The notes beneath the pieces were generated by a model. The model was given only the letters and a program-made list of their open reading frames with translations, did not search any database and was not told where the DNA came from. A DNA stretch of 64,000 nt from an uncultured Nitrososphaeraceae archaeon (GTDB lineage Archaea > Thermoproteota > Nitrososphaeria > Nitrososphaerales > Nitrososphaeraceae), in the NCBI GenBank assembly GCA_963729045.1, contig CAVSMN010000011.1:64001-128000 (forward strand), read 5' to 3'. This document shows, in pieces, positions 21,208-39,894 of this stretch. How positions within the stretch are numbered: position 1 is the first letter of the stretch; the number at the start of each line of letters is the position of its first letter. The position numbers and the translations under genes are program-made.

Positions 21208-21583
21208 GAATAGACCTTGAACAAGAAATAACTATCCAGTTAGTAGATCATATAATTACAATTATTTTTTGAAATGTAATCTTAGTCATTGGTCATGAAC
21301 AAGATTTCATTCATAATTTGTAAGATTCTTATCGATTCAAAACATAATCCAAAATTACATTCGATTTAAAACTTTTATCTTTTAGATGTGAAAATGCCGG
21401 ACAAAATAGTTCAATTTCTATAGTATAAAGAATTCATTGATGTAATTTCCTCAGGAGGTTTAGTATTGATAGTAGTGATATTGGCATTTACATCACAATG
21501 TATCCATATTGCAACTCATGAAATGAAATAGATGATACTTAAATCGCCGAATCCTTAAACGTTAACTCGATATTTGGATTATT

Positions 21584-22234
21584 TTAAATCAAGTGCAAGA
21601 TTTTCGACAGAAAGAGTGTACTGGATTCAGGCATGCGAACGGTGCAAACAGATGAGACGATACTTTCATAATCAATCACGAGCCCAAATGAAATCCTACC
21701 TGTTACAGTTATAGCACAATCTAAACAATCAGAGAAATTACTAATTCTTATGAATGATTTAGAAGATGCACTCTCAATACCTTCATCAATTACTACAGTA
21801 TCGATAGTAATTTCTTCAGTAAATAGAAATGTGGTGGTACGAATGTTACATATGTTATCATTCTGAATAGGATAGGGCCTACAAACAGAATGATCGATGA
21901 ACATTTTTAACCTTAGCTCACTTGATGTCGCAGACCCAACTGGCAAAATTGATTCACAGGGGTTATTCAATACAGACCATTCATTGGAATTTTCTTGGTC
22001 CTGAAGGAGTGCATTATTTCCAGATAATAAACTACTATCCCTAGAAATAACCTGTCCATTTTGTTATGCCGATTGTGATTGTTATGTATTCTATTCTACA
22101 TTACTTCCATTACCTCTTTGGGATAAAGCGCCATTTTGCGCGTAGGATGATAATTGAAGGTTAACTGAAACTAATTCAATTGATAATGTCATAATGATGA
22201 AAAACACATTTAAACTTAATCTTCTTATTGTTAT
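21584..22234 (-). pseudogene. secreted protein with Q/N/S-rich module, three in-frame nonsense codons
   Basis: Single frame: signal peptide then NVE*NT*QSQSA*QNGQVISRDSSLLSGNN; stops at 22093, 22084, 22066 in frame with ORF 21584-21970. Confidence 0.65.
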
Positions 22235-22483
22235 AAAACTTAGAAATGAATTAAAAATATAATGGCTATTGTTGATTTAAGCCTTTTCAAATAATAGAAA
22301 ATTTAGAAATAAATCCAGAAGTAAGATATAATCTACTTACCATAGATCAGAAATAACGAAGTGATCACAAAAAGGGTAAATCTAAGTTGGAATAGTCCGG
22401 TTAAGGAATAATTACTATTCAAACTTTATATTCAAGTATTTGTCGACAATACAATAGGTATTTTATCCATATCCATGGTTTTT

Positions 22484-22903
22484 TTAATACTTTTCTAAAA
22501 GTTTGTTAACGTTATTAATTAGTTTAATCAATGAAAATGGCTTATGCATAATATCATCGATTTTGACTCCGGTGTTCAAGTTATCAGATACCTCGAGTTC
22601 AGAAACGTCATAAGCAGACATCAAAATTGTCTTGATCAATGGATCAATGCATTTGATTTCATTTATTAATTGATAGCCATTAACTTTGGGCATACGGATA
22701 TCTACAAGGACCATACAATACTTTTTGTAATGCTCTTTCAGTTCATTTAGAGCTACTGCAGAGTCATCAAATGTAACTACTTTGAGCCTTTGTAACTCTA
22801 ATGCCTTTTTATAAACAAAAAGCAAATCTTTTTCATCGTCAATGATCGCTATGCTACGATCACCTGCTCGATTATGTGATGTTCTAGGAGTATAATTGGG
22901 CAA
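22484..22903 (-). CDS. single-domain response regulator
   Basis: IIDDE, DIRMPKVNG, MSA, KPF. Confidence 0.9.
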   Translation of the reverse strand: MPNYTPRTSHNRAGDRSIAIIDDEKDLLFVYKKALELQRLKVVTFDDSAVALNELKEHYKKYCMVLVDIRMPKVNGYQLINEIKCIDPLIKTILMSAYDVSELEVSDNLNTGVKIDDIMHKPFSLIKLINNVNKLLEKY

Positions 22904-23762
22904 TATATATCATAAATAAACCAAACTATTAATGTTTTTGCAAAATAATGGAAATATATAACAATTATATTACTTACACTAAGCAAGAAGGGTAGGTAAT
23001 TCAACTAGTCTATCGGATAATAATGATGATGAAGATGACAAATTATAACTATAATGATTATTTACCTTGATGGTAATAAATAAGCTATTTAATTTTTGAA
23101 TTTGATCAAAAACATGAAGAATCTTTTTTATTTATATCTCCTTGCTTTGTTAAAATTGTTGTTAGATTAGATAATCAATTTAAAGAACAAATTGTATTTA
23201 TTTAGCCAACTCCATAATTTCGTCTGTTTGGATTTCTTATTTGTAATGGTTTATCATCACTTATCCGTATTGCATCAAACTTAGATCTAAATATTGTAAA
23301 TTCTCTTGTCTATAACAAACTAATAGCATCCGCTTTGTCATCAGTCATTCAATCATGCTTAACAATAAAATAGATATTTTTATTATCCTCATTTTCCTCC
23401 ATGCTTTTTTTCTAGATTTGCTAAAAGAGATAGATATTTTATCTAATATTTAGAATATCAGAGAATCTCAATAATCACTTATTTGATTGACAAGAATTTC
23501 TCAACGTCATCTAACGAATAATGTACTAAATAATCCCGAATACTTAATACCTGTAAGACTATGAACCTTGCTCCAACATTTCTCGAAAATACTCTCTCCT
23601 TTGGCCTTATTGAGAAACTAAATTTACTTTTAGATATTCATGGAAATATCACTACCGATGAAGGTAATTTTCACCCAACAAGACCTTCCCGCAGTGTATT
23701 CAGCAAAGGGTTTCCAAAGTATTATATTAATAACCCCTCAAGTTTAATAAAAAACGCAGTAG

Positions 23763-23865
23763 GCTCCGGTGGTGTAGAGGTTATTAACCAAAGTAGCCAC
23801 ACAGTCCGGCTAAGCATTTCGCCCTCTCAAGGCGACGATCCCGGGTTCAAATCCCGGCCGGAGCA
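23763..23865 (+). tRNA. tRNA-Glu(CTC) with 27-nt non-canonical D-loop intron (15/16; 23778-23804)
   Basis: Acceptor GCTCCGG/CCGGAGC, anticodon arm TCGCC-CTCTCAA-GGCGA, T arm GGTTCAAATCC; BHB: GTGT/ACAC helix with AGA and AGT bulges. Confidence 0.95.
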
Positions 23866-23927
23866 TCCTCTGTTTGGAAAAAGAAGACCAATTTGAGTTT
23901 CTTTTCATGATCTCTGTTTTATGAGAA

Positions 23928-23958
23928 TCTGTATACAGTTTCATTCTGTATACAGTTT
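23928..23958. repeat. direct repeat of a palindromic site, TCTGTATACAGTTT x2
   Basis: CTGTATACAG at 23929-23938 and 23946-23955. Confidence 0.8.
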
Positions 23959-24155
23959 TTTGTCGTAGTGTATATCGCAACTTAAGCATGAATAACCAAT
24001 CTTTTTGAATGATCCGAGACTTCCAATTCTGACATATGTAGAATTTAGGCCTCTGTTACAGATGGTACATTTGGTCATAGAACAAGAATATTTGAAGCAA
24101 TTGGATTTAAAGCTTTTTTGGATGTATCCAATGGAGATAGTAATGGTGTCGTCAT

Positions 24156-24216
24156 TTGAGAGGGCGAAATGCTTAGCCGGACTGTGTGGCTTTCATTACT
24201 ACTATACCACCGGAGC
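24156..24216 (-). repeat. inverted 5'-half copy of tRNA-Glu(CTC) with a variant 20-nt intron
   Basis: GCTCCGGTGGTATAG-TAGTAATGAAAGCCACACAG-TCCGGCTAAGCATTTCGCCCTCTCAA; 24156-24191 is the exact reverse complement of 23795-23830. Confidence 0.92.
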
Positions 24217-25063
24217 CTTCAATTACGTCGATATTAGTCCTTGTAGTGTGGTTTTAATTCTATTAATCAAATGTTGTTTAGTGAACTAGTCTAGTTAGTG
24301 CTTTTATGAGAATGAAGAGGAAATATTGCCGTTTTGACTTGGGGCGGTCCCCTTTTTGTATGCTATTCAAACATATGATCGTGACATTTCTAATAGATAG
24401 ATTTGATAGCATTTAGAATTCTTTTTGCAAAACTTCCAGTATGTGATTAAGCAGTCTTTGATAACATGAAATATTAGTAGCGTATAGAAGTATATGAAAG
24501 TTGAAAAATCTCTTACACTTGTGCATTTTTATAGCAAATGTATATTCTACGCAGGCTGATGATTTCAGAATGGAAATTACTATATTTAGTAGTTTGATTG
24601 TCATGATTTGTTGATTAAAAGTTCATTGTCTAGAAGTATTGATTATCAGAACTGTTCAGTCGGCCAGCATCCTGACATTCGTATCCATTATATCTTCGAT
24701 TGCCAGAATTATCAGAAGTAACTTTGATAGCAAAGGAATTTCCTTTCTTAAGACATCTCATCTTTTTCTGATTAAGCATTTCAACTTTCTTTCATAGGAC
24801 TATTGATACAATCTTTTACCTTGAAGATATAGAATCTTTGCTTTTCGAAAACATGATTAATATAAGATTAGGGTGTTAAGAATTAAGACTTTTTCGTATT
24901 TTCATGATTGGATGAGAATAGAAAGGATTCTAAGTTCTTGATGGTAGTTGAATAGAATAGCGGAGTGGGGGGCCGAGCTCATGAAAGATTAAGTTACTTG
25001 TATAATATACGCATAGTTACACTGCGTAAAGGATAAATACATATAATTACATTCTCTAATCAA

Positions 25064-25601
25064 ATGGGTCGAAGCATTCCTTCATTTAGACAGTTAATTG
25101 AGATAGAGCGGTTGAATTGGTCTGAATTTAAGAAAGAACTACCATCCAAGGATGAGAAAGAAGCGTTTAATACCATATTTGAAAACGCCAAATTGTATAC
25201 ACAATATCTATCTAATGCCAACAGACCAATACCAATAGAGCCTATTATGATGGGTGCTTTGTTCCATAATTATAAAACACTTTTGAAGTTGTGTAAAGAG
25301 GAGAATGTCACTGAAGAATCCATAAATCAGAAATTGGTTGTATTGGATAAGAGAGAAACCTTTAGCAAAAACATTGTTTGATAAAACTTGCGAAAGGTGG
25401 CGCGGTCTGCTATACGCCCTTCATAAAGATGATAGAGAACAGTTGCTAAAAATGTTAGTTGATTGTTGTAATAGTTTGGATGAAAGGGCGGCCAAGGTGA
25501 TAATCGACAAAGTTTCAGAATCTACTATTTCTGTTCTTTTCTTTTTTTGTCTAGTCTTGCAGAATCAAAAACTGATGAACAGAATTAAAAAGTCTAGATA
25601 G
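25064..25601 (+). CDS. small helical protein resembling the PolB2-operon-associated family, tandem two-domain form (frameshift near 25350)
   Basis: MGRSIPSFRQLIEIERLNWSEFKKEL...EAFNTIFENAKLY...N.P.PIEP pattern; second ORF repeats the helix-W-helix-DD pattern. Confidence 0.55.
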
Positions 25602-25917
25602 AAAAGAGCCTAAGATGATGTTAATTTGTTAGACTTTATCGATTCATTATATTGGAAATAGTTCAAGTTTCATCTATATGGTTGCGGCGCGCTACCACTC
25701 AAACATGAATGCAAAATTTCTAATTTGTGAGATTGTATATATTCGATGGAGATAATTGTGTAGTGCCGTCGCCAATTCTCTAAATCATTCAAAATATTTT
25801 TCGCCATTCTTATTCATGTAATTTAGAATTGTTTTGTGTTATCATGGTGTGGTTGCCATTTTAGTATCGAAGTGTTAGTAAATATATATAATTACTCATC
25901 TGTTGTCCATTAATGAG

Positions 25918-26298
25918 TCATATGATCCGCTCCACCCACTCGGATCTCCACTCTGGTGGCTCAAATGGATCAGCGTAATAGTGCGTCTCATGTGCAATCT
26001 TGCCTTCTCCGAACTCCATGATACATACAACATTGACGGGGCGGCCATCATAGGTGATTATTAATTCAGTTATCCAAAGATTTCCTTCTCCACGAACTCG
26101 CGAAATCTCAAAAGTGAGTTTAGCAGGATAATGTGCCCTGAGTTGGTAAATGTTGTGTTTACCACGAATTAGTTCCCCAGACTGTGGAAATTCTACCATA
26201 ACATCATCTTGGTAAAATTCATGTATTTTCACCAGATCATGAGCCAATGTTGCCTCCCAATACTGATCCATGATTAAACGCAGTTCCTGATTATTCAA
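25918..26298 (-). CDS. SnoaL-like / NTF2 family protein
   Basis: EFPQSGELIRG, LWITELIITYDG, ETHYYADPFEPPEWR. Confidence 0.88.
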   Translation of the reverse strand: MNNQELRLIMDQYWEATLAHDLVKIHEFYQDDVMVEFPQSGELIRGKHNIYQLRAHYPAKLTFEISRVRGEGNLWITELIITYDGRPVNVVCIMEFGEGKIAHETHYYADPFEPPEWRSEWVERII

Positions 26299-26725
26299 CT
26301 ATATGTTCATTGCCTTTACCAAAGGTTTGCTTATTAGTATTCACTTTGGCTTTGTGTGATAAACAATTACCACTTGATGACTTGCTCCAAAAAAGTAGTA
26401 TGATATTGAAAGATGGAGTCAATTGTTATATCCATTTTCCTGGATAAGCCCAGATGAAATAACTAATGAAGAATCCTCTAAATGGAGGGTGACAAAAAAA
26501 AGAGGAATGTATATGCAAGAACTTCTAAATGGAACAATATTTCTTACCACCGATCCCCATGGTTCTAATCTAAATCGATTAAACTTTTTACCACTATATG
26601 ATAGACCTTTCTTAAAACAGCTGATAGAATCCGTACGTTGAATAAGATCCATTTAGAATTGTCAATATCTAACTAAAAATGATTCCTTATCCTAGCCTGT
26701 TGTAGTGGTTAATACTTCTGAACAG

Positions 26726-27111
26726 CTATTGTTTGTTAGAGCAGAGTTTAATTATATGGGGACCTAGATCGTTCAAATCTATTGGCTTTAACAATACTTC
26801 GGTGATTTTGGCCTCTCTGAATTCATCCCCAGGCAACATGTCTTTAATATAATATCCCGTTATCAAAAGAATAAGAACCTTGGAATTGATTTTTCTTATC
26901 CTCTTTGCAAGTTCCAAACCATTCATAAACGGTAGATCCCAATCTAAAAGTGCCAGAGCATATCTACCATGATTTTGTTCATAATGCTCCAAAGTAATAA
27001 TGGATTAGCGAAAATGATCGAATCAATTTCGAATCTTTCTAAATACAATTTGAAAAGATATGACAGATCCTCTTCGTCCTCGACTATAATTATAGACAGA
27101 GGCGTGGACAT
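26726..27111 (-). CDS. single-domain response regulator (frameshift near 26990)
   Basis: MSTPLSIIIVEDEEDL from ATG 27111 joins DWDLPFMNG...ITG...KPI. Confidence 0.8.
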
Positions 27112-27267
27112 TCTTGTCAGACATTGCTATTAAGGTATTTAACAATCGCTGTTTAGTTGTTATCTATTCAAATACACTTTTGTTAGAACTTTTCATCCAC
27201 AAAAAGAAAAATGCAAAACTGAACGAAAATATCATCGATAGTAATTTTTTTACTTGAGTCACCAAAA

Positions 27268-27675
27268 TTATGAAATCTCTTCTAATTTGCTAAACCCACC
27301 AAAGGAAACTGCAGATCCAGGGGTGATTAGCTCCATGAATCGTTTGTATAGTGGTTCAAGGCTATTGTCACCTTCCATACTAGCAACAAATGCTTTCACA
27401 TGCTCTGCATCTCTATAGGATTGTATTTCAAGCCATACTTCATCGTCTTCACTGGCTGAAATTGTTTTAGATAGATTTTCAAATTCCATCACGTTTTCCC
27501 TATTGGCAAGAGAAAATACTTCAAATCCAGATGCACCATGTTTTGTGAAAAAATCTCGAGACTGTCTGTTAACTTCTACCAATTCATCATGGTTTTTCTT
27601 TGGGGCCCGATAAAGGAAAATTTCAATCTGATGGCATGAATATTTTTGGTTTGAAAAAGCGTTAGTACTAGTCAT
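27268..27675 (-). CDS. DUF1428-like dimeric alpha/beta protein
   Basis: YRAPKKNHD, DEVWLEIQSYRDAEH, FGGF pattern. Confidence 0.6.
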   Translation of the reverse strand: MTSTNAFSNQKYSCHQIEIFLYRAPKKNHDELVEVNRQSRDFFTKHGASGFEVFSLANRENVMEFENLSKTISASEDDEVWLEIQSYRDAEHVKAFVASMEGDNSLEPLYKRFMELITPGSAVSFGGFSKLEEIS

Positions 27676-27783
27676 GACGATTCATATCAAAAGAAGATAT
27701 AAAAATTATCAAGGGATCAAAAGTATACTTATATTCAATACGGATTTTGATTTTGATTATAAAATTAAGATTTAAAGAAAATT

Positions 27784-28572
27784 CTAACTCTTAATTCCAA
27801 TGATCATAGATATTGGAAAATAAAAGAAAATTTCCCCGTTCTTCATGTGACTTCTCATACCTAAATTATCCATTAAAATGTCTTTCTTAAATAATAGTCT
27901 AATTCTAGGTATATCCGCAGGATTCGGAAAAGACGATTTTAAGAGGTTCTCGAGCCCCATTTCTAGCTCATGGTGTTTAGATTTCAACTTAGTCAGCCCG
28001 GCTTCATGCATTAATCCTTTTAGCTGTTCAAAAGTCAATGCTCCAGTGTGTGAACTATCACGTAATTTTTCTACGCCGTTATATGCCTCAATCTTGTCTT
28101 TATCTGGAGTTACATCAATTATGAGTAATTTGCCATTTGGTTTACATACTCGCGTCATCTCCTCAAGTACCTGCTTTGGGTCAACTAAATGATGAAAACT
28201 ATACCTAGTTACCACCAACGAAAAGGAATCATCCTCAAAAGGAAGTCTAGTTACATCTCCTAACTTCCAATCCACATTATCAATCTTTCTTTCTCTCTGA
28301 AGATTTATAGCTTCCTCAATCATAGCGGGAGTAATGTCTATTCCCGTAACATGGTTAACTTTGTTAGCAAACTCACATGCAATAATTCCCGGTCCGCATG
28401 CCACATCCAAAACATTGTCGTCAATTTGTGGATCACTTAATTCAAACATCAACTCTAATCCATAATGATTTGAATGTTGAGCCATTTGTGAAAATGGAAG
28501 GGCCTGTTTGGTAAATTGAGATACAATAATGTCATTATGGGATATACCATTATCATGAGTATTGGAATCCAC
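27784..28572 (-). CDS. class I SAM-dependent methyltransferase
   Basis: VLDVACGPG, GIDIT, LPFEDDSF, EMTRVCKPNG. Confidence 0.92.
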   Translation of the reverse strand: MDSNTHDNGISHNDIIVSQFTKQALPFSQMAQHSNHYGLELMFELSDPQIDDNVLDVACGPGIIACEFANKVNHVTGIDITPAMIEEAINLQRERKIDNVDWKLGDVTRLPFEDDSFSLVVTRYSFHHLVDPKQVLEEMTRVCKPNGKLLIIDVTPDKDKIEAYNGVEKLRDSSHTGALTFEQLKGLMHEAGLTKLKSKHHELEMGLENLLKSSFPNPADIPRIRLLFKKDILMDNLGMRSHMKNGEIFFYFPISMIIGIKS

Positions 28573-28629
28573 ATTGAAAAAATAACTTTGCCAAATATAA
28601 AAATTATTTATATCGACAAGGTGAAAGGC

Positions 28630-29000
28630 AAATTTATTACAAATAGAACTTCTAGAAAGTTATGAACCCGCTTGGAGTAGCTAATTGGTTCATCTGTTCC
28701 CGAGTATAATGCTAAAATTTGAAAATCCTTAACTTCACTCATATCTCCGCTTTCTATTATCCTACAAAAATCGAACACTTTCAGCTAATGCGTTTTTTAT
28801 TCAATAAAATCATAATTCTGCCAGTTAGAGAACTTTTAAGGTATACTTTCAGTCTTCTCGTACAACAACATTCTCTGTTTTAATACTTTGTAAATCTCTG
28901 TGACTTGCATATATTTTCCAATACTTTTTTCATTCAATTCGGCAACTAACCATAGGAGCCTATTGACAAATTTGTAGCCTATTTCCACACGCTCTGAATC
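28630..29000 (-). pseudogene. possible degraded gene (approximate limits)
   Basis: One frame reads protein-like for about 120 codons with three in-frame stops; no family recognised. Confidence 0.25.
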
Positions 29001-29279
29001 AGATATTAAAAGATAAAAGAATTACAACCCTTTTGAGATTTTTCATGGATTTGAACTTTCAAATCAATATCATACCTATGTCAAAAATAGTTAAACCGTT
29101 TCATAGAATATGAATCATATTATTTACTTGAAATGAAATTTGTATCTCGAGATTCCAAAACAGGGTTTGTGAAATTTAGTTGTAGAGTTGGTAATTACTT
29201 AAATTGGATGTGTTGGTCACTCAACTACATTCTCCATAAACATTTATATTCTGATAATTGTTTCTATTGATAGTATTAG

Positions 29280-29375
29280 ATGATGTGTTCCAAATGCAAA
29301 ACGGACTATGAGGTAGAGAAATCATTTTATGATAAGAAATTACATCGTTTTGTTTGTCCTACTTGTAAGGCATGA
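29280..29375 (+). CDS. 31-aa zinc-ribbon micro-protein (not in ORF track)
   Basis: MMCSKCKTDYEVEKSFYDKKLHRFVCPTCKA*; TTTATAT box about 35 nt upstream. Confidence 0.65.
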   Translation: MMCSKCKTDYEVEKSFYDKKLHRFVCPTCKA

Positions 29376-29911
29376 ATTCTCTAAAAAATAATCTAGCCTA
29401 TTAATAAATAAATGTTGTTGGATATTGCATACATCATTATCCGGGGACAATTTATACTATTACTATTACGGAGTAATAGAGCACAATCTTGAAGGGACAA
29501 TGAATTTTATCGACACCTGAGAATCAACCTCCGAATATACCTATTAAGAAAAATCGATTTAACTTATCACTTTTTATATGATGAAAGGTTCCAAAAGATT
29601 GATTGCACTTTTGACACCTAAATTTTGAGTTAGTAGGACTAGGGGCCAAATGCCTTAAGAGCATTTTTGTTGCGGTTTGCAGAATAGCTGTTAGAAAAAG
29701 ACCTCTGCATGAGAGATTTGATTCTTTCCATGCAGAAGTAGACCCTATCGAACAATAATAGGTCACCAAAAAATGAACCTTTGTCTAATTTGTTATTCAA
29801 AATAGAATATTATCTAAACAAGTGGTAAGCGTGCAACAATGTAATAGACAATTGGAATTGACAAAAAGTGTTGGTCAAATTAACCATGATACTTTTAGCA
29901 TTAAAAAGAAT

Positions 29912-30175
29912 ATGGACAGCATGAAAGATTTCGAGGATATGACTCTCGAAGAAAGGGAAGAAATTCTTGAACAGTTAAGAAATCTTCCAGATGAATCAAG
30001 TGATCCAATAGATATCTTTACACACTCTTTCAATGAACTTTCTCAAAACTGGTCTAATGCTTTAAAAGAATTTGATACAATTTACTCAGACTGCAAAATA
30101 GAAAGTCATGTGAACCATACTGAGGAAAGAGATGAGAGTAGTTGGCGGGCGAAAATCTGCAGCCGCTTCTACTAA
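29912..30175 (+). CDS. acidic hypothetical protein
   Basis: ORF with ATG at 29912, protein-like composition. Confidence 0.45.
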   Translation: MDSMKDFEDMTLEEREEILEQLRNLPDESSDPIDIFTHSFNELSQNWSNALKEFDTIYSDCKIESHVNHTEERDESSWRAKICSRFY

Positions 30176-30248
30176 TCAGGTTTAGAGTTTGCAAACATCA
30201 CTAAATATTATGCCAGATTACAACATTGATTGGAATTAATCCCACTAA

Positions 30249-30833
30249 TTACCGAGGCTTTCGAAGCATTGGAAAGATGGGAGGAAATTCTTTTACTTTA
30301 ATGGTACCAAGCAATTCAAAGCCGTGTCGTTTGTAGAATGGAATGTTTCTTGGATTCGATGATTCGAGATATGCCAATGAATTATCTTTATCACACACGG
30401 TTAGTGCATGTTTCATGAGCAAGGAACCTAGACCTTTACCATGGTGATGAGGGTCCACTCCTAGAAGTGGTAAGTACCAGTGGGGTTCATTTGGATGATA
30501 TCCACCCATTTTCTCAAACACTTCTGGGACGACCCTTTGAGATTCTTCGGATGTAGTTTCTTGGAGTAGTGCAAGTATGGTATCAACATCAGGATCAACA
30601 TTTGGAGGTAACCAAAGGGCAGCACCATAATAATTTCCAATATAGTGGGCAGACTTGTGTTCAAATGCTTTTCCTCCAAAGGCTTGGGCAAATTTGGAAA
30701 AATGCAAAAGGTATTTCTGTGAATCTGGCCATACCCAACGTGTGGCAGGATCAGCTACAAAGGCCAATTTTAACGCATCAATGACAGCGTTTTCCTCGAA
30801 TTCGGTAGCCGTTTTGACATCTGGTATTGTCAT
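30249..30833 (-). CDS. GNAT family N-acetyltransferase
   Basis: HWYLPLLGVDP.HHGKGLGS, YLESSNPRN..FYKRHGF. Confidence 0.93.
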   Translation of the reverse strand: MTIPDVKTATEFEENAVIDALKLAFVADPATRWVWPDSQKYLLHFSKFAQAFGGKAFEHKSAHYIGNYYGAALWLPPNVDPDVDTILALLQETTSEESQRVVPEVFEKMGGYHPNEPHWYLPLLGVDPHHHGKGLGSLLMKHALTVCDKDNSLAYLESSNPRNIPFYKRHGFELLGTIKVKEFPPIFPMLRKPR

Positions 30834-31366
30834 TAAATTCCCTCATAATATATGAAGTCATGACATTTTAAGATTTCATGCAAATGTTAAAATTTGAGAT
30901 AGTCAACCCGTCGTGGATCTCGTATTGATGAATCAAATTGAAGAAATTTGATTTGAAAGATTTAGTATCTTTTGGAATAGTTACTAAGGGTAAATTTTCT
31001 TAAAGAATAATCAGAACCAGGTTTATTGCCTGAAAGAATGCTATCGATTTTCTTCTCAAAGTGGGATAACAAGGAGCCAGGACTTGCTAGTGATGGTAAG
31101 GCTGATAGCGTACGCGTTGTGGAGCAAATACTTTGGTTATTGCAGATTTGAAAGCCACGACTGTTAAGTACTAATGTCCAACATTCTCTTTTTACCGATA
31201 TCAAAAAATATTCAATTTCCAATCTCCTTCCTTACATGAAAAAAATAACTATAATCCTTTAACTTCAGCTAAAAATTGGACAAGTGATCGTCTTGTCAAT
31301 AGACAAATATCACCAAGAATTTATTGAGAAATTTTTTAAAGAAAATAAGCAAAAAATAAGGAGGAT

Positions 31367-31635
31367 TTATTGTTGTCCTGCGGCTATGTTACCGTCTTGG
31401 AATTGAAGACCCAGACCTACATTGTTACAATCTAACAATGATATTGTACCAGTAACACATTGTGCATTTTGTTTATTTGTTTGTTCCTGCTCGATTTCCT
31501 GTTCTGAATCATTGTGTTTTTTCTTCCACCTGCATATGCCATGTTATCACCAAAGGCTACTACTGAACCAATTAGGGCTGCTGCAATGAATATTGCAAAT
31601 ATTCCTACTTTGTGAGTTTTTGTTATGTTGCTCAT
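31367..31635 (-). CDS. small secreted Q/N-rich two-Cys protein (frameshift in A run near 31520)
   Basis: Signal peptide ending MAYA; after shift ...NDSEQEIEQEQTNKQNAQCVTGTISLLDCNNVGLGLQFQDGNIAAGQQ*. Confidence 0.75.
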
Positions 31636-32021
31636 TATAGTCAGAATATATAATTGAAATTGATTATATCATAGCTTAGATTCTTATTACTGTTTGATTT
31701 CAATGTAATTAGAATCTAGTATTATGCTCACATAAACAATTTAGTAACATAATTACGACTTAACCTAGAATTCGTATGGAGAAGGAGTTAAACGTAATAT
31801 TACTAAGTTCGTGTTTCAATGTTCTTACCTATATTCACGATGTACAAAAAATCCTCGGATTGCGCTTTTATAATGTAATAAGTAATTTTAAGAAAGACCA
31901 ACGCTGCACAGCAATCTAGAATTCGAAGGTAAAAAGTTATTCAACATGTAAAGGTAATATCGTTGAAATTAATATGAAAACAAACATCCAAAAATGAAGA
32001 TGGTTTATGATATTTGGAGTT

Positions 32022-32058
32022 TTTTTATGCTCTCGATTAGGTATGGAGAGCATAAAAA
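32022..32058. repeat. 13-bp perfect inverted repeat
   Basis: TTTTTATGCTCTC-11 nt-GAGAGCATAAAAA. Confidence 0.7.
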
Positions 32059-32431
32059 TCAAAGCCCTCTTTATCATTTCAAATATCCTTGTTCTCAAGA
32101 TAGGTAATTTCTATCAGATACAATATGATTACTAACTGGAATTTGAATGTAAAGTATTAACTTACAGAAATTATTTTGGTATTTTGAAAAAACAAAATCA
32201 AATTTTGAAAAAAAATCGAACTTTCAGGGGCATATGGTTTGACAGAAATAAAATTTAGTTGTTGCTAATAATGACATTTTGCAAGATACTTCAGGAAATA
32301 TTGTGATAAACTCATGAATATCAGATTAATTAGATCTTTTAAATATTGGTTCATTGCGAACCTCTAGTTGTCCTAAGAAAAAAATTGCAATTATTCAAAT
32401 GATTTTTGATAAAAATATATAATGTATTTAT

Positions 32432-33025
32432 ATGCTAAAACAGTTAGTTGGAATATTGATTAAAATTTTTATCTTAGTAACACTTTTGGCAGTTGTCGCA
32501 ATGATTGTTGTTGTACCTAGCTCAACGGCGCAACCAACATGGGAGATATATGAAAATAACAACTGTGGAATATCACTAAAACATCCTTATGCATCAGACA
32601 TTGTATTAGATAATGACAAGTCTAACAATAGTTTTAAAATCCAAAGTTTCGAAACACACACGGATCCTGATTCATTGAATATGACCTTAATGGTTTCATG
32701 CATCGACAAAGCAATACCTATAACCTATGAGAATATGGAATTAGCAAGATCGAACTTGTTAAAGGATTCCAAAGCTATCGTTCTTGAAGATATTTCATTT
32801 AATAGAACAACAATTGATGGTGAAGCAGCAGGATCAGTGGCGATCAGCAGGCCCATCGGCTTAACAGACATCAACGAGATTGATAAAATTATTGAAACCA
32901 ATCATTCAGACCAAACTTATATAATTAAACTAAATTTTACCGGAGATGAAGGTATTAGTGGATTTTATAACAATTATAGGTATTTGGAGGACAACCTTAT
33001 TGACTCGATCAAATTTTCTCAATAA
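32432..33025 (+). CDS. secreted PsbP-like protein
   Basis: Signal peptide, WEIYENNNCGISLKHP, TTIDGEAA, IDSIKF terminus. Confidence 0.7.
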   Translation: MLKQLVGILIKIFILVTLLAVVAMIVVVPSSTAQPTWEIYENNNCGISLKHPYASDIVLDNDKSNNSFKIQSFETHTDPDSLNMTLMVSCIDKAIPITYENMELARSNLLKDSKAIVLEDISFNRTTIDGEAAGSVAISRPIGLTDINEIDKIIETNHSDQTYIIKLNFTGDEGISGFYNNYRYLEDNLIDSIKFSQ

Positions 33026-33580
33026 TTAGATTATTTGCAAATATTGATTTGAATGAAGAATTAATTTAGTATCGATTTAGGATTAACACAAGAGTAATTA
33101 TTATTTATATCATTCTTTTGATTTATCTGAAGAACTAGTAATTCTCGGTAAATGCTGAGGGTATTAATTTATGATTTTACTGAGTTTTTCATTAATCAAG
33201 ATGCTCCCTTGGTTTATTCAATATGCCCGTATATCACTTTGCTATTTGATTCATCAAATCTAATGAAGATTCATGATAGGCTAGAGGGCAAGTGCGTCTT
33301 AGTTAACCATAGTAATTTAATCCAGGCGTCTAGTGGATTTTGATTATTTGCCCAAAGGGATAAACAAGTAGATATCAATATTAATGCTAGATTTATTTTG
33401 TAACTAATTAGTATAATTGTTGAACTAGAATGTTCTTTTTTTAAATATAATTGAATAGAGCCTTCTACGAGAAATCACTAATTGACTAAGTGAAACTCCG
33501 TGACTATTCAAATTTGATTTCATTAAGGTTTCTTGAAACACACTAGATAAATGCAAGACCTGAGAGAGATTAATCCAATA

Positions 33581-33997
33581 TCATCGTTTCAGCCGTTTAA
33601 TAATTTCAACAATTTCATACACCAATTCCGCCTCTTCCTTAAGAATATCATGTTCCTTGAGATAGTATTCATATTCATTCTCCAAGAGAACGATCCCTCG
33701 ATCTAAATCTTTCCCATATATGTTAAGGACACTCCTCAATAATGCAATATTCAAATAATGAGGATTTCCATTGCTTTTAGATTGATCAAAAAGGATCCCA
33801 ATATTATTTAAAATATTCTTCTCATTTATGTCCAACGAATGTAATATGAGATTTGTTTGGGCTATCACTACAGTATTATTATTATTTTGTTGTTCTAGTT
33901 TTATTTGACTATAAAGTTTATTTCTGTAAAAATCAAACGCATTTTCAACCATTCTAGAATAGCGTAAAAAACCATTAAGATAATCTTCATTTATCAT
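33581..33997 (-). CDS. hypothetical helical protein
   Basis: 138-aa ORF with ATG start. Confidence 0.5.
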   Translation of the reverse strand: MINEDYLNGFLRYSRMVENAFDFYRNKLYSQIKLEQQNNNNTVVIAQTNLILHSLDINEKNILNNIGILFDQSKSNGNPHYLNIALLRSVLNIYGKDLDRGIVLLENEYEYYLKEHDILKEEAELVYEIVEIIKRLKR

Positions 33998-35399
33998 AAA
34001 TATTATAGATAAGAAAGCGTATTAATTTCTATACATATTTTAAATATGATTTAATTTATTATTTTTGTATAAACACAACATCTTCACGTGTGGTACCATT
34101 TTTTCTCAATTGACAATTAGGGAATCAGTGCATCAAGTACCTAAATTTAATTTATTATTGGAGAGACGGCTTGTTCTTTTATAAGATATTTAGATCAACT
34201 AGGTATCTCAAAATCCTTATCAAATATTTGCAAAGGTGAATGCAATAAAAATAATGCAAATCTAATTGCACTAATTCTGTCAGATAAGTTTTCATAAAAA
34301 TCAATGAAAATGGAATAAGGAATTAAATGGAGGTGATCTGTTTGATTTTGGGCCACCATAATTGAGGGAATTGAGTCCTAATAAACAATAATCCCGTGGA
34401 TTCACTTTGGGCTTTATTTGACTGAAAATTAGACTGGTAGTATCATTAAACTAACAACTAATTTGGGATGATAATGCTGTACCATAGAGACAATTAAGAA
34501 TACAGATGCACAAATTTATCGAATTGAACCTGGCGTATCATTAGTACGCAGCAAAATAATTTCTTACAAATAGAAAATTAATTGGTACTATTTGTTGTCT
34601 GTTTCTTTTTGGGTTGTTTAAATATGTTCATTATCTTGTCTATTATTGAGTTATTAGTTTTTGTCATTTGCTACTTGTATATATAGGATGGATGTTTGTC
34701 TTAAACCTTCTTATGACTTTTGACCGGCACGTTGATGTTTTCTGGATAATGAGTAAAACAGTTACTATTACTATTTCTAGTTAGAGTAAATATTTCCCTA
34801 TAGTAAACGAATTTAACATCTGATAAAATGTGTAAATGAAGTAACTTTTGATGAGGTCAAAACTAAAACGGCTGGTTAAATACAGATGGTGCTTTTAAGT
34901 ATTAGTGAATATAGCGATTGAGTGTTCAGAAATGAATGCAGAGTAATGCTGCTGTTTGATTTTCGAGACGATAAATGAGGGAATGTCGTGCTTCTAGATA
35001 GATTTTGGAACAAACTGAATCCATTGATTTGCTTCTTTCAAATTCATGTCAAATTCAGAGAATGAATTTCAGATAGTAAAATATTTGTACATCCGCAAAG
35101 GCATTAAAGCTACCCTTCTACTAAAGGATGGTTGAGTGTTAGTTAGATTCGTTGTTCGTTTGGAAATAATTTTGTTTTATTTGGTGAAGCAAGAAAATTA
35201 ACCTTTTTACAATCAAAACAATAATACTGAACTCAAATGACCATATTGTTTTAGCAAATCGATTATGAAATTCCCATCACATCACACCACAAAACTACTG
35301 CACAAAAACCAGATAATTATTCTAGAAAAAAATTAACTATCAATCATAGTATAGCATTGTATTAAACCTAATTATACACATATTTTCACATAGTGAGTT

Positions 35400-35759
35400 A
35401 TGGCGATTACCTTGTCATCTACATCAACCACAAGTACACTTATGGAAGAAGATGAAATGAGGTTCCGTTTAGAGAAAATAGAAGAATGTAACCTGCTCCT
35501 TAGAAGATTAGATGGAGGAATATACTACATTAAATGGGATGGAATCTTACCATTAACAAAATATTCAGCAAAGTCAAATATACAAAAAAAATTAGAAATT
35601 AGAATTGAATCAGATATTGAATATGGAAGGTTCATTTATCTAAGAAAACCATACATTACCAAAAAAATAAGGATATGTGGAAGGGACTCATCTTGTTTAA
35701 GATCTTGGAAAACTGAACAATTAACCGAATTATTGTCAAAGCTTTCATTTCTAAAATGA
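35400..35759 (+). CDS. hypothetical protein
   Basis: 119-aa ORF, no recognised motif. Confidence 0.45.
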   Translation: MAITLSSTSTTSTLMEEDEMRFRLEKIEECNLLLRRLDGGIYYIKWDGILPLTKYSAKSNIQKKLEIRIESDIEYGRFIYLRKPYITKKIRICGRDSSCLRSWKTEQLTELLSKLSFLK

Positions 35760-36144
35760 GATAAGATAGTTAGAATCTCAATGTGTTTTTACTGATAGCT
35801 ACTTACACATTTCCCCAAGCCTCTTCTCAACTTTATTGGAAAAATCAAGTTCTTTAAAATTCTTAACTAGTTGAAATCATTTTCTTGATTCCTATTGGAC
35901 CTTGAAGAATTGCTCAGGGAATTCGTAGATTTGCTTTCCAACAAGTTTGCATTCAATAAACCAATAAAAAATTGACATACTGGGAAAAATTATTTGAAGC
36001 TATGAATTTATTTGAAATTATCCAACTACGAAAGATGACAAAAACCTGCACATAATAGATATTTCCATTCATTAACATCTATGCATACTATAGAATCAAT
36101 TTAGAATAGGTCATCAAAGGCTTACAATTCAGCAGCGTTTAATT

Positions 36145-36200
36145 AAAAACAAAATTAACTAACTAAAACAAAAACAAAACTAAAACAAAAACAAAAAAAA
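36145..36200 (-). terminator. oligo-T terminator tract after amoC
   Basis: Repeated T4-T8 runs immediately after the amoC stop. Confidence 0.6.
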
Positions 36201-36202
36201 GA

Positions 36203-36766
36203 TTATGGAACTGATCTGCTGTAGAGTTTTCCTTCTAATGCTAGTTTGTACATTTCTGCTACATAGGGGTTCCTTGCAGGAGTTTCAGCGCCAAGTTCTA
36301 CCAAACGTGCGTATACCCTAACTACATAGGCCAAAGCACCCATGAAAGCTACTACTACACCCATGTTAAACATCCAGTGGTTAGGTACTGAAAATATTTC
36401 TTCAACAAACCAAAAGTGCCACATTTCATTGATACCAATTGTGAACATGGTAGCTAAATAACCGATAATGGTTATCTTTAGACCAGTATTCATTGAATTG
36501 TTTGGTCCTCTTAATGCTGGTACTCTCCTGTCATACATCGCAACAAATCCCCAACCTAGTGGGAGTGCAATAAAGTGACTGTATAACCACCAATGAGCTG
36601 GTGTAAATGCACTGTCTCTGATGGCTGTTTGGTGCAATAATCCATCAACAAAGTTGTCTACTTCTACTGATGCAGCAATAGACCCTAGCATAATGACCAT
36701 TATATAGATCTTTTTTAGCCTCTGGATTTCTACTTCCTTTGGAATTAATGCAGGCATTTGTGCCAT
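36203..36766 (-). CDS. amoC: archaeal ammonia monooxygenase subunit C (stand-alone copy)
   Basis: MAQMPALIPKEVEIQRLKK, EVDNFVDG.LHQ..IRDSAFTPAHWW, NEMWHFWFVEE.F..PNHW. Confidence 0.98.
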   Translation of the reverse strand: MAQMPALIPKEVEIQRLKKIYIMVIMLGSIAASVEVDNFVDGLLHQTAIRDSAFTPAHWWLYSHFIALPLGWGFVAMYDRRVPALRGPNNSMNTGLKITIIGYLATMFTIGINEMWHFWFVEEIFSVPNHWMFNMGVVVAFMGALAYVVRVYARLVELGAETPARNPYVAEMYKLALEGKLYSRSVP

Positions 36767-36973
36767 TTTACTATCACCATGTCTTCGTTGATTAAATATA
36801 TAAGATGTGAACTAAAATATTTATAAATAATACTAGAAATTGATGGAATATTATTAAATTATTAGATGAATGTTTAATTAATTAACTAAATTTCTGATGT
36901 TTTGTCAATGTTGTCAAGCTTATCGTCGATGATTATCATCGATGATTGATTTTGATATGCAAAAAAAAGAAGA

Positions 36974-37606
36974 TTATGTAATAGTTATATTCTTATTAAG
37001 ATCAAAAGACTTGCCAGAATTCTCGTCCGTAATCTTATAAATTATTATATAATCTCCAGTGGGGAACGGTACAGATTGTGTCACAGTAAATGGTATGAAA
37101 ACCTCCTTATTCTGATTATGTGATATTATATTTCCGATTGGCACGTTCTCCTGACCACCGAGAATGGTACCATTAGAACTTGTTATGAGAAAACTAGCAC
37201 CAAAGTCGATGGAGAAAAGCGGAGTTCCATCTTCATCCGTAATATTATTATATTCAAAACCAACTGGTTCAATATATAAAATTATTGATTCTCCAGGAGA
37301 ATAAGAAGTAGAATTCTTTTCCTCATAAATTCCAAAGCCACTAGGTTCTGCTGTCACGAATAAATCCTTATTTGAGTAAAAGCCACTCGTACTATTGGTG
37401 TCACCTGTACTATTGGTGTCACCTGTACTATTGGTGTCACCTGTACTATTGGTGTCACTTATTCCCTGAGCATTGGCTTGTCCATAATTGAATCCATTCA
37501 ATGAACTTCCCATGACTGCAAAGATCAAAAGTGCGAATAAAAATACAATTTTCGATGATTTATTTTTCATACTACAGTTCTTTAATTTTTGATAATTTAT
37601 TAACAT
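36974..37606 (-). CDS. secreted protein with DTNSTG repeats
   Basis: Signal peptide ending ANA-Q; Ig-like C-terminal domain. Confidence 0.75.
   Translation of the reverse strand: MLINYQKLKNCSMKNKSSKIVFLFALLIFAVMGSSLNGFNYGQANAQGISDTNSTGDTNSTGDTNSTGDTNSTSGFYSNKDLFVTAEPSGFGIYEEKNSTSYSPGESIILYIEPVGFEYNNITDEDGTPLFSIDFGASFLITSSNGTILGGQENVPIGNIISHNQNKEVFIPFTVTQSVPFPTGDYIIIYKITDENSGKSFDLNKNITIT
37389..37458. repeat. 18-bp coding tandem repeat x3.9
   Basis: GTACTATTGGTGTCACCT units encoding (G)DTNST; each carries an N-S-T sequon. Confidence 0.95.
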
Positions 37607-37669
37607 AGCTGTGTAGTGAATTGCAATTTTTGAATTAATTTAATAAATAATATTGGCAAAAGTAAATGG

Positions 37670-38101
37670 ATGATAAGTCTATTAGAATACCTCCCGATAA
37701 TAACGTCGGGACTTTTGTTTCTAGCCATCCTCACCTTAGTTGCAAATAGAAAAAATTTGAGATTACAGAGCGAATATCAAATATATGCAAGAATGATAGA
37801 GGCAAGATTGAAACTAGAGACTTCAGAGCCTTTTATCAAAATGGCAAGAGAAAGTCCATTCTATGCAGACAGATTTGCTCTTGTAGATAGTCCTGACCAA
37901 TTCTACATGCTTAGAGCCTTCATAGACTTGTATGAATTCATTTATAGACTTCACAAGACACATGTTATTGATGATCAACTTTGGCTGAGGTGGATGTCGT
38001 CTGCGAAAGCCATGAAATCAATTCCTAAATTCTTGAATGTGTGGGAAAAAACTAAGTCAGTCCATTCGCCTGAATTCGTTAAATTCATTGATTCATTATA
38101 G
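37670..38101 (+). CDS. membrane-anchored hypothetical protein
   Basis: N-terminal TM helix, helical body ending FVKFIDSL. Confidence 0.7.
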   Translation: MISLLEYLPIITSGLLFLAILTLVANRKNLRLQSEYQIYARMIEARLKLETSEPFIKMARESPFYADRFALVDSPDQFYMLRAFIDLYEFIYRLHKTHVIDDQLWLRWMSSAKAMKSIPKFLNVWEKTKSVHSPEFVKFIDSL

Positions 38102-39846: not shown

Positions 39847-39894
39847 CTAATATTTGTGTTTATTGCTCCTTCGCTGGCGTAAGAGAAACTTTTA

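Follow-up and report, generated by a model that had tools for sequence, protein, structure and literature searches.

The window analysed here is a stretch of 64,000 nucleotides from an uncultured Nitrososphaeraceae archaeon (assembly GCA_963729045.1, contig CAVSMN010000011.1, positions 64,001 to 128,000), and positions are given in the numbering of this window. At 23763-23865 on the plus strand lies a resident and apparently functional gene for tRNA-Glu(CUC), recognised by its sequence, its fold and its conservation in relatives, in which exon 1 (23763-23777, 15 nt) and exon 2 (23805-23865, 61 nt) are separated by a D-loop intron of 27 nt (23778-23804). The gene at 23763-23865 was detected by neither ARAGORN nor Rfam. 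Its RNA is predicted to fold into the acceptor, anticodon and T arms together with an intron helix, at an energy of -38.6 kcal/mol (z -3.28) that none of 200 shuffled sequences equalled. The exons and 50-100 nt of upstream sequence are kept in relatives; the introns of the resident genes are hypervariable, all 20 within the genus being different from one another. Intron length is divisible by 3 in 18 of 20 relatives, counted as species.

A gap of 290 nt (23866-24155) separates this gene from an inverted partial copy on the minus strand (24156-24218), termed A2, which by sequence comparison covers tRNA positions 1-38 and carries an intron of 20 nt. The repeat search returned a perfect inverted repeat of 36 nt (23795-23830 and 24156-24191, arms 325 nt apart) and a second arm pair of 27 nt at 81% identity (23761-23787 and 24192-24218); a perfect repeat of 36 nt cannot be a chance product within 1.4 kb. 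Read from 24218 to 24156, A2 has A in place of G12 and an intron with a deviating 5' part, and its identity to the resident gene ends directly past the anticodon loop, at position 38/39, which is also the published site of strand exchange by SSV-type integrases (PMC8371274). The leaders upstream of the two copies align weakly. An earlier note on this DNA, made from the letters alone, had described this arrangement in the same terms, from the 36-nt identical block 290 bp past the gene to the introns of 20 and 27 nt, the G12 to A change, the loss of identity at the loop and the similarity of the leaders, and repeat search, alignment and sequence all agree with it. Its statement that the BHB and D-stem of the copy are damaged holds as well, since no stable fold was found for A2 (-10.8 kcal/mol, z +1.53). 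So does its remark that the only tRNA 3' half lies between the copies: blastn found no second tRNA-Glu 3'-half copy in the 2.85-Mb, 87%-complete assembly, where the other matches are T-arm stretches of 14-21 nt that, as far as they were checked (outside the C13 and C10 clusters), fall in other tRNA genes such as tRNA-Gly(GCC) at C11:32443-32519.

The segment between the two copies is taken up by the remains of an integrase gene. Open reading frames and homologues identify 23810-24078 on the minus strand as a pseudogene, the int(N) of an SSV-type integrase whose N-terminus bears a zinc ribbon. A frame of 45 aa with a CxxC...CxxC pattern runs from 24078 to 23941 and, after a frameshift, a second frame runs from 23989 to 23810 and reads through the reverse-complemented tRNA 3' half (...QRMLRPGFEPGIVALRG; ...MLRPGFEPGIVALRG). 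Both parts form a single 91-aa frame in the related contig G008:C497, and in G007:C27 they extend into the catalytic domain as a 348-aa frame that matches PF16795 ('archaeal phage integrase') with 35.0 bits against a cut-off of 27. The position of int(N) directly at the tRNA in the window is that of an SSV-type gene with attP inside the integrase frame; the tyrosine-recombinase catalytic domain is found in relatives only, the window being without int(C). Homologues of the zinc-ribbon int(N) occur in 26 of the 34 genomes of the genus. Within the window tblastn with the integrase gave int(N) as the sole type of match, and neither PF16795 nor PF00589 matched there. Elsewhere in the genome four PF16795 matches lie in open frames of 148-257 aa, as against 350-420 aa for full-length proteins; the 87%-complete assembly yielded neither a full-length integrase frame nor a PF00589 match. 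A search for a free element in viral contigs, with the 348-aa integrase as query, gave no relative.

The att of the zinc-ribbon element spans 23822-23879: it starts in the anticodon stem, near position 30, and ends 14 nt beyond the tRNA 3' end. Copies without the tRNA in relatives begin at points that map to window 23821-23824, and G041 holds a complete relative, a 10.5-kb element that has int(C) at its right end and is bounded on either side by a direct att copy of 57 nt (window 23823-23879; at 2792504 and 2803021-2803077). In the window direct att repeats at both element ends are absent, and int(C) and the right-hand att copy are missing; with no second 3'-half copy in either window or genome, what is left is a truncated element remnant. 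The breakpoints as placed by alignment (38/39 for A2, about 30 for the att) agree with the published cut sites of IntSSV1, which border the anticodon loop (PMC8371274). The 77 nt between A2 and the integrase start codon (24079-24155, minus strand), termed P', carry a TTTAAA box at about 24104-24120 (plus strand) and are kept among the window, G046 and G041 (88-93% across the module). A AAGCTTTAAA-type box is common to zinc-ribbon modules, and P' is probably the promoter and leader of the integrase gene.

Further sequences at the locus belong to a second kind of integrase. An open frame of 111 codons (23561-23896, plus strand) passes through the tRNA promoter and the whole tRNA-Glu gene with its intron and, judging from its translated matches, is a remnant of the att-proximal int(N) part of an integrase in sense orientation ('U-type'). 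As tblastn queries, the U-type int(N) frames from 5 relatives matched 23636-23953 (plus strand) at E values from 4e-19 to 2e-33, and in relatives the frame is open up to 215 codons upstream of the tRNA. A further int(N) stub of about 700 nt runs on the minus strand from 24856 to 24156, and A2 is its end, the translation of A2 matching '...SHTVRLSISPSQ' of U-type int(N) frames. The remaining, decayed part of this stub (24219-24856, minus strand), traced by tblastn, DNA homologues and leader alignment, consists of a promoter-like stretch (24219-24270), a linker for which no similarity was detected and, from 24856 to 24740, the N-terminal 'U' domain. This domain has 2 in-frame stops and gave tblastn matches from 24856 or 24847 to 24740 at E values of 1e-5, 1.5e-4 and 5e-4. 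The spacing from the 'U' domain to the tRNA half is 638 nt in the window and about 606 nt in the open frame of G007. In G041, G044 and G007 DNA homologues of 24219-24856 directly precede the resident tRNA-Glu, and in G024 they precede the 5'-half copy.

Intact U-type integrases of 423 aa (in G013:C79) and 397 aa exist in relatives (PF16795, 29.4 and 33.3 bits). Their frames cross the promoter, exon 1, the intron and exon 2, and the catalytic domain follows the anticodon loop; a phmmer search of PDB sequences with the 423-aa protein gave nothing meaningful (best E 0.5). Intron lengths that are mostly multiples of 3 fit an intron evolving within an integrase gene. In relatives, U-type elements supply the 5' half of the working tRNA gene, and direct repeats of promoter and 5' half flank insertions of 11-14 kb in G024 (766981-767092 and 781344-781493), G046 (571871-572000 and 584471-584652) and G007 (C27, 13931-14051 and 24800-24957). 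Such direct 5' repeats occur in the relatives; of the 5'-targeting element the window retains only the inverted int(N) stub.

Comparison with relatives places the inverted copy in a family of elements. In 10 related genomes (12 loci) and 4 metagenome contigs a tRNA-Glu 5' half precedes the integrase start by about 50-80 nt; counted by module, it lies upstream of the start codon in 11 of the 29 zinc-ribbon modules examined, plus G041. It is present also where no resident tRNA is adjacent (G004:C36, G013:C70, G007:C27, G041, G046), and the two copies in G004 have a common flank past the copy. Two other zinc-ribbon modules carry a T-arm-like piece in place of the 5' half, and the broken zinc-ribbon copy on C17 has an att that resembles a tRNA-Val 3' half, for which no matching tRNA was found in the assembly. 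The copy has the anticodon type of its target in 11 of 12 loci, the exception, G044:C18, being a chimera. Its intron is identical to that of the resident gene in 3 of the 9 CUC-type loci with a known resident gene (G041, 27/27; G007, 30/30; metagenome contig L128, 27/27), and because the intron is otherwise hypervariable this identity means that the two copies do recombine.

Past the copy, the window can be followed into a shared backbone. Between about 23204 and 36000 the window is matched collinearly by G022, except for about 815 bp that are missing there from exactly the outer edge of the 36-nt block onward. The backbone starts with a conserved motif, ATACGCATAGTTACACTGCGTAA (25008-25030), containing a TACGCA...TGCGTA inverted repeat, which lies 30-60 nt past A2 in G041, G046, G022 and G044 and about 815 nt past the 36-nt block in the window. 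It is followed on the plus strand by an element gene recognised by homology, 'orfY' (25064-25601), which is frameshifted in the window (frames 25064-25381 and 25338-25601), has an intact homologue of 199 aa in G008:C497, is syntenic beyond A2 in G022, G041, G046 and G004:C37, and matched no Pfam family over its cut-off. Collinearity with the flank in G041 resumes at 27431 (window 27431-40486 aligns with G041 2807494-2822000, plus strand), giving the element remnant a maximal extent of 23866-27430. Two apparent rearrangements were set aside. Inverted matches to G041 (24563-24857, 27268-27608) suggested a large inversion, but the window is collinear with G041 on either side, and the DUF1428-like match is to a second copy in that genome; and G004:C37, considered as a flipped state, has a zinc-ribbon frame that enters a tRNA-Val gene, hence a different arrangement. 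The possibility of an assembly artefact, also raised in the earlier note, is removed by the recurrence of the arrangement in the independent assemblies G022, G002, G004 and G008 and in 3 metagenome contigs. Among its proposed checks that note had named the same arrangement in related genomes and a nearby tyrosine recombinase: the arrangement is indeed conserved, and the window holds no intact recombinase near by.

Taken together our results make it highly probable that repeated insertions at a tRNA-Glu hot spot of an ammonia-oxidising archaeon have left a decayed, nested attachment-site scar here, and that the locus is not a switch. An att remnant or decayed scar was the reading that the earlier note ranked last, and the int(N) stubs of the integrases now support it. 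It builds on what is directly visible in the alignments, namely the anatomy of the locus, its homologies, the conservation across the family and the single orientation. An element with an SSV-type ('suicidal') tyrosine integrase, the zinc-ribbon integrase encoded antisense to the tRNA, would have entered the 3' part of tRNA-Glu(CUC). Because the attachment site lies inside the integrase's own gene, the insertion would split that gene; the int(N) half would have stayed beside the tRNA and later been frameshifted (24078 to 23810), and the int(C) half and the right-hand att copy would subsequently have been deleted. Elements of this family bring with them the 5' half of the target tRNA, placed upstream of the integrase start and in the same direction as the integrase, and after integration this element-borne half stands opposite the resident gene as an inverted repeat. 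The copy seen in the window is the end of a second int(N) stub, derived from a different, sense-oriented SSV-type integrase that is aimed at the tRNA 5' half; the gene of that integrase runs from the promoter of the tRNA through exon 1 and the intron into exon 2 and is cut at the anticodon loop. The intron of the copy would differ because each U-type integrase gene carries its own intron allele. The shared 36 nt consist of conserved exon 2 and the intron's 3' end, whose partner in the splicing helix is exon 1. Several relatives have a copy that the resident gene has overwritten further. We infer that the second element entered through the older copy, recombining with it as a secondary att site, that the likeness of the two copies is maintained by gene conversion and that the tRNA gene alone works at the locus today.

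Some observations sit less easily with a scar. The 5'-half copy has been retained family-wide, although the sequence directly after it has decayed. The copies recombine, so inversion may account for part of the exchange, or the copy may serve some purpose. No intermediate accounts for a 5' half that is inverted relative to the att inside the integrase gene. G022 has the same chromosomal site without the U-type part, which makes the order of events in the window's lineage a presumed one. In an anchored test for similarity to the tRNA 3' half after position 38, the similarity of 2 of 6 UUC-type elements was reached by at most 2 of 1000 shuffles and that of 2 further ones by 14 and 17 of 1000, whereas it was non-significant (96 to 314 of 1000) in 5 CUC-type elements including the window, so that such similarity is clear in UUC-type elements only.

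A use for the copy might be that of a functional secondary att site, the zinc-ribbon family keeping A2 and P' together as a mimic of the host attB; we consider this unlikely. U-type elements could there piggyback or swap modules, or the family's own element could integrate without splitting its integrase gene, and the copy in the window would be compatible with a dead example. The conservation of the copy in the 12 loci of 10 genomes and the 4 metagenome contigs speaks for such a role, as do the better preservation of the stretch between the intron 3' end and position 38, which is the sole remnant in G008, and the junction in the window, where the U-type int(N) is joined to P' exactly at the loop, as integration at A2 and P' would leave it; elements nested in integrated elements have moreover been reported for Thaumarchaeota (PMC6563490). 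However, not one of the 8 integrated loci has the predicted product, in which the host promoter and 5' half are joined to P' and an intact integrase gene. Every copy carries mutations in the right arm of the core (positions 39-41), variously by lineage, and decay is unrestrained in the acceptor stem, the outer part of the copy. We are equally doubtful, on this comparative evidence, that A2 is a working secondary att that imitates the tRNA 5' half and loop, is kept by loop-anchored recombination and is used for module swaps. If it were, the window would preserve a junction at which the U-type int(N) is fused to the leader of the zinc-ribbon integrase gene, integrases might occasionally invert the segment of int(N) and tRNA 3' half, and together with the 5'-targeting integrase mobile integrase genes would be a direct source of tRNA-Glu intron diversity.

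The earlier note had proposed an invertible switch, in which recombination in the 36-nt core flips about 325 bp, joins the only 3' half to the alternative 5' half and intron, and turns tRNA-Glu(CUC) off or places it under a new promoter. The perfect inverted repeat does bracket the sole 3' half, exchange between the copies has occurred in relatives, and SSV-type integrases are described to invert DNA between inverted att sites in vitro (PMC7253208). Yet the flipped order is present in none of the 8 integrated loci (5 genomes and 3 metagenome contigs, whose assemblies represent the majority state only), the segment to be flipped is an int(N) pseudogene that is frameshifted and without int(C), the copy is mobile-element DNA, and no full-length integrase frame turned up in the 87%-complete assembly. 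With A12, the lost intron helix and the decayed promoter-like leader of A2, the flipped state would be a dead gene. The architecture of the element already explains the arrangement, which leaves a switch very improbable. The sequencing runs available as assembled contigs shared at best 0.29 of the sampled words, and in four of them no contig spanned 23866-24200. The split tRNA-Glu 5' half of Nanoarchaeum equitans ends at the anticodon loop, as A2 does, and in a read-through transcript pairing between the copies would extend over 36-63 nt, but that A2 is a 5' half trans-spliced to a 3' half, as the earlier note had also considered, or acts by fold-back pairing in a read-through pre-tRNA is barely conceivable, since an intact, contiguous tRNA-Glu(CUC) gene is present, the 87%-complete assembly holds neither an orphan 3' half nor a complementary leader, and the sequence after A2 is an integrase gene leader, conserved as such. 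The copy is a piece of a pseudogene.

The attachment-site scar can be set beside the SSV-type archaeal integrases, on which Cossu et al. reportedly worked in 2017. The type I 'suicidal' tyrosine integrases of archaea include those of SSV1/SSV2, pTN3 and pT26-2 (She et al. 2001 via PMC7253208; PMC8371274), and their stubs are described to accumulate and to reshuffle into hybrid genes (Badel et al. 2020, PMC7253208). The window shares with these systems an attP in the integrase gene and the split into int(N) and int(C) by integration into a tRNA, and its family shares the PF16795 catalytic domain, the pile-up of stubs and breakpoints that agree with exchange at the anticodon loop. The host in the present case is a mesophilic ammonia oxidiser and not a hyperthermophile, and one family is distinguished by a zinc ribbon at the N-terminus and by an additional, inverted 5' half of its target ahead of the gene, of which we found no mention in the accessible portions of the SSV-type integrase literature (PMC7253208, PMC8371274).

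Among thaumarchaea, Nitrososphaera evergladensis harbours NitEve-E3, a cryptic integrated element whose SSV1-like integrase is split (Krupovic et al. 2019, PMC6563490), the one such element in the accessible text of that survey, according to which all tRNA integrations but one lie in the 3' part. NitEve-E3 resembles the present case in its thaumarchaeal host, its SSV1-like integrase split on integration and its tRNA target; the zinc-ribbon int(N) homologues in 26 of the 34 genomes here and a second, 5'-targeting family set the two apart, as far as the description goes. In Caldiarchaeum subterraneum a 5' fragment of tRNA-Thr and the gain of an intron accompany the insertion of a mobile element, and delivery of tRNA introns by mobile elements was proposed (Sugahara et al. 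2012, PMC3293823). As described there, that fragment likewise differs in intron content and is parted from the working gene by recombinase-bearing mobile DNA, but it is a direct repeat 1.8 kb upstream, whereas A2 is inverted, 290 bp downstream and part of an integrase frame. Elements that integrate into the 5' part of tRNA genes come with a promoter and 5' half of their own (Zhao and Williams 2002 and CalSub-E1, via PMC6563490), and the U-type elements of the relatives, flanked by direct repeats of promoter and 5' half, are of this kind by that description; here the att also codes for the integrase itself, intron included.

The candidate switch or split tRNA falls, and the kind of integration scar seen at this locus has been known since SSV1. 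Suicidal integrases have been described mostly from hyperthermophiles. In this genus of mesophilic ammonia oxidisers they are common and diverse, the zinc-ribbon int(N) occurring in 26 of 34 genomes, and one tRNA gene serves two families of opposite polarity, one directed at its 3' part and the other at its promoter and 5' part. The head-to-tail pile-up of their stubs is raw material for the hybrid-integrase model of Badel et al. Finally, an in-frame D-loop intron inside an integrase gene, with a length that is a multiple of 3 in 18 of 20 species, provides direct sequence evidence for the proposed delivery and reshaping of tRNA introns by mobile elements in archaea.

A gene for archaeal AmoA in the genome that contains the window (2.85 Mb in 22 contigs, 87% complete) marks the host as an ammonia-oxidising archaeon. 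Within the window, whose G+C content is about 33%, a tRNA-Glu(CUC) gene occupies 23763-23865 on the plus strand and carries a 27-nt intron in its D-loop (23778-23804). ARAGORN and Rfam did not detect it; the folded sequence has acceptor, anticodon and T arms as well as an intron helix (z -3.28) in which exon 1 pairs with the conserved intron end CACAC. The inverted half copy that the earlier note had placed opposite this gene was recovered by a repeat search as a perfect 36-nt inverted repeat (23795-23830 and 24156-24191) whose arms lie 325 nt apart, with a second, outer pair of 27-nt arms that are 81% identical. The copy, read from 24218 to 24156 on the minus strand, corresponds to tRNA positions 1-38 with G12 changed to A and a different intron of 20 instead of 27 nt, and its identity to tRNA-Glu stops just past the anticodon loop. 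As the note had also claimed, the two upstream leaders are weakly similar (a weak alignment exists between the 45 nt preceding the copy and the promoter region of the resident tRNA gene), the copy is damaged, with no stable fold (z +1.53), and the sole tRNA-Glu 3' half lies between the inverted copies, a search of the 87%-complete assembly finding no other. A tRNA-Glu(UUC) gene, present in relatives where it is also an integration hot spot, was not found in this assembly and may be located at a contig break. On the upstream side, the ~2 kb between a conserved cyclophilin-type gene and tRNA-Glu (21391-23638), which include a response-regulator gene (22484-22903, minus strand), are missing from some relatives (G015 and G002), so this side of tRNA-Glu is variable too.

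The 290 bp between the two tRNA copies are minus-strand coding sequence. A 45-aa CxxC...CxxC ORF, a zinc ribbon, runs from 24078 to 23941; past a frameshift a second ORF (23989 to 23810, also minus strand) ends in ...QRMLRPGFEPGIVALRG, where it reads the tRNA 3' half in reverse complement. Both parts are joined in a single 91-aa frame in a related genome (G008:C497), and in another (G007:C27) the same frame passes through the attachment site (att) to give an ORF of 348 aa with a PF16795 ('archaeal phage integrase') match of 35.0 bits (cut-off 27). SSV-type ('suicidal') integrases, in the sections of PMC7253208 cited here, have attP within the gene, and integration puts the two gene halves, int(N) and int(C), at opposite ends. 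The frame described above bears the signature of this type. G041, a complete genome, has a 10.5-kb element of the same zinc-ribbon family between 57-nt direct att copies (2792504 and 2803021-2803077), with int(C) at its right end; tRNA copies without a 5' half start at about position 30 and end 14 nt beyond the tRNA 3' end. The window has neither int(C) nor the right-hand att, and since collinearity with the G041 chromosome restarts at 27431, the element remnant measures at most ~3.5 kb. Homologues of zinc-ribbon int(N) were found in 26 of the 34 genomes of the genus. A 303-aa frame of the family (MLRPGFEPG...), with the entire catalytic part, lies at 622-1533 on the minus strand of locus L061 (G046:C2), and its ATG consists of the complement of the last two tRNA bases and the first base past the gene, a position equivalent to 23866-23864 (minus strand) in the window. 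With the ATG formed at the tRNA end, the int(C) end would retain a start codon within the duplicated att after integration.

The inverted copy belongs to the zinc-ribbon element family. We aligned the 220 nt upstream of the start codon of 29 zinc-ribbon modules to both tRNA-Glu genes and found a tRNA-Glu 5' half in 11 of them, co-directional with the integrase gene and ending ~50-80 nt before its start codon. With G041 as the twelfth, the copy is present at 12 loci in 10 genomes, related genomes being non-independent samples, and likewise in four metagenome contigs; more distant integrases among the 29 modules have no Glu-like copy upstream. It is kept without an adjacent resident tRNA at G004:C36, G013:C70 and G007:C27 and in G041 and G046, and the flank beyond it is common to both G004 copies. 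The copy type follows its neighbour, UUC-type beside tRNA-Glu(UUC) and CUC-type beside tRNA-Glu(CUC), the lone exception being a decayed chimera in G044. In UUC-type elements the post-loop sequence resembles tRNA positions 36-60, a likeness that no more than 2 of 1000 shuffles reached in two of six, and 14 and 17 of 1000 in two further; the five CUC-type elements, including that of the window, showed no such likeness (96-314 of 1000). A distant zinc-ribbon subfamily also sits beside tRNA-Glu(CUC) at loci L047 (G015:C1, ~1385.4 kb) and L061 (~611.7 kb), where a single piece of another tRNA, like a T-arm and acceptor, and a short inverted T-loop copy, and no Glu 5' half, precede the integrase start.

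In the window the copy forms one end of the stub of a second integrase. Genome G022 aligns collinearly with window positions ~23204 to 36000 at 78-84% and lacks ~815 bp (24192-25006), the gap starting precisely where the 36-nt block has its outer edge; the conserved element motif ATACGCATAGTTACACTGCGTAA lies 30-60 nt past the copy in G022, G041, G046 and G044 and at 25008 in the window. Within this extra DNA, 24563-24857 has homologues that lie directly before the resident tRNA-Glu in G041, G044 and G007 and, in G024, upstream of a 5'-half copy; relative to the tRNA half, each is oriented as in the window. Long open frames, reaching up to 215 codons upstream, enclose the resident tRNA in relatives; they open with the conserved domain MSLLSK.E.QFLQGQKQVSKSYE.KLK and traverse promoter, exon 1, intron, exon 2 and 3' half. 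Where 5'-half copies stand as direct repeats 11-14 kb before the tRNA, the frame continues beyond the loop with a PF16795 catalytic domain, as in the intact integrases of 423 aa (G013:C79) and 397 aa (G007:C27). These frames, here called U-type, are a second SSV-type integrase, sense-oriented, with promoter and 5' half as att. Five U-type int(N) frames of relatives used as tblastn queries matched the resident tRNA region of the window (E down to 2e-33), the inverted copy itself and, at 24856-24740 (minus strand), the N-terminal domain (E 1e-5, two stops). The distance from this domain to the copy is 638 nt, compared with ~606 nt in G007, where the frame is open. The inverted 5' half is therefore the att end of a ~700-nt int(N) pseudogene that follows the zinc-ribbon int(N) head to tail.

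The intact U-type frames (423 aa, L106, 1267-2538; 397 aa, L108, 1384-2577) lie where integrated 5'-targeting elements have their left junction and start in host-side DNA. An int(N) from an earlier insertion seems to have completed the split gene, so integration may be non-'suicidal' for the U-type family. A U-type N-terminal-domain frame (...KELPLLS..LTKFSKEE) is also found in several relatives left of tRNA-less att copies (L007, 1672-1947, minus strand; L025, L064 and L065) and reads into the tRNA 3' half, so that sense and antisense integrase stubs converge on one att. Elsewhere in the genome of the window, T-arm-like matches (six to eight, 14-20 nt long) recur every 1.3-8 kb downstream of tRNA-Gly(CCC) (contigs C13, ~91.7-106 kb, and C10, ~147-169 kb), in a pattern suggestive of elements integrated in tandem.

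Each of the 20 resident tRNA-Glu(CUC) introns in the genus is distinct from all others, and the element-borne intron is nevertheless that of its own genome in G041 (27/27), G007 (30/30) and metagenome contig L128 (27/27), where the acceptor-stem part differs from the resident gene despite the identical intron. At the remaining six of nine CUC-type loci with a known resident gene, identity is limited to exon 2 and 7-16 nt at the intron 3' end, and the G046 copy has two changes even within the exon. Identity always extends from the loop outward over a variable length, from which we infer gene conversion. The 36-nt block of the window is explicable without conversion: it consists of 26 exon bases and an intron end (AGCCACACAG) that is common to several alleles.

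The repeat had also suggested an invertible switch, in which recombination in the 36-nt core flips the segment holding the tRNA 3' half. We consider this highly improbable. None of eight integrated loci (the window's genome G000, G022, G002:C135, G004:C31, G008:C16 and metagenome contigs L128-L130) is flipped, host promoter and 5' half being joined to the 3' half in all, although in assemblies a rare inversion would not show. The four PF16795 matches of the genome are all outside the window, in open frames of 148-257 aa, PF00589 has no match in the genome, and a flipped tRNA gene would bear A12, an intron without helix and a decayed leader. A split-tRNA half is very improbable, given the intact tRNA-Glu(CUC) gene and the lack of an orphan 3' half in the 87%-complete assembly, and an assembly artefact is excluded by recurrence of the arrangement in independent assemblies.

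The locus is of a known kind, a suicidal-integrase scar, and the comparisons establish its anatomy, homologies, conservation and single orientation. Known suicidal integrases include, in the parts of PMC8371274 and PMC7253208 cited, SSV1, pTN3 and pT26-2. For thaumarchaea the cited part of PMC6563490 reports one SSV1-like split integrase, with 5' targeting rare. In Caldiarchaeum, according to the relevant part of PMC3293823, a mobile insertion is adjoined by the 5' fragment of a tRNA gene; as with the window copy, the fragment's intron content is unlike that of the working gene and mobile DNA is nearby. In the literature covered by a search aimed elsewhere, we found no mention of an inverted 5' half conserved within a single integrase family, of two opposite-polarity families meeting on one tRNA or of an integrase frame containing tRNA promoter and intron. 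As to history, the copy of the zinc-ribbon family may have originated when a tRNA copy or a U-type att was captured upstream of the integrase gene, the origin of the inverted polarity being documented by no intermediate among the examined loci. In the lineage of the window a U-type element would have recombined with the copy at the loop and later been mostly deleted, and gene conversion would maintain the likeness of copy and resident gene.

The D-loop intron sits inside the sense-oriented SSV-type integrase frame that also spans the tRNA promoter. In 18 of 20 genomes of the genus its length in the resident gene (window 23778-23804, loci L086-L104 and L032) is divisible by three (21, 27, 30, 36, 42 or 48; exceptions 23 and 26), with a binomial tail of ~2e-7 at p = 1/3 that is overstated since relatives are non-independent, and 16 of these 18 introns contain no in-frame stop. 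The three-fold lengths fit an intron that evolves within the integrase frame and is passed to the host gene at each integration.
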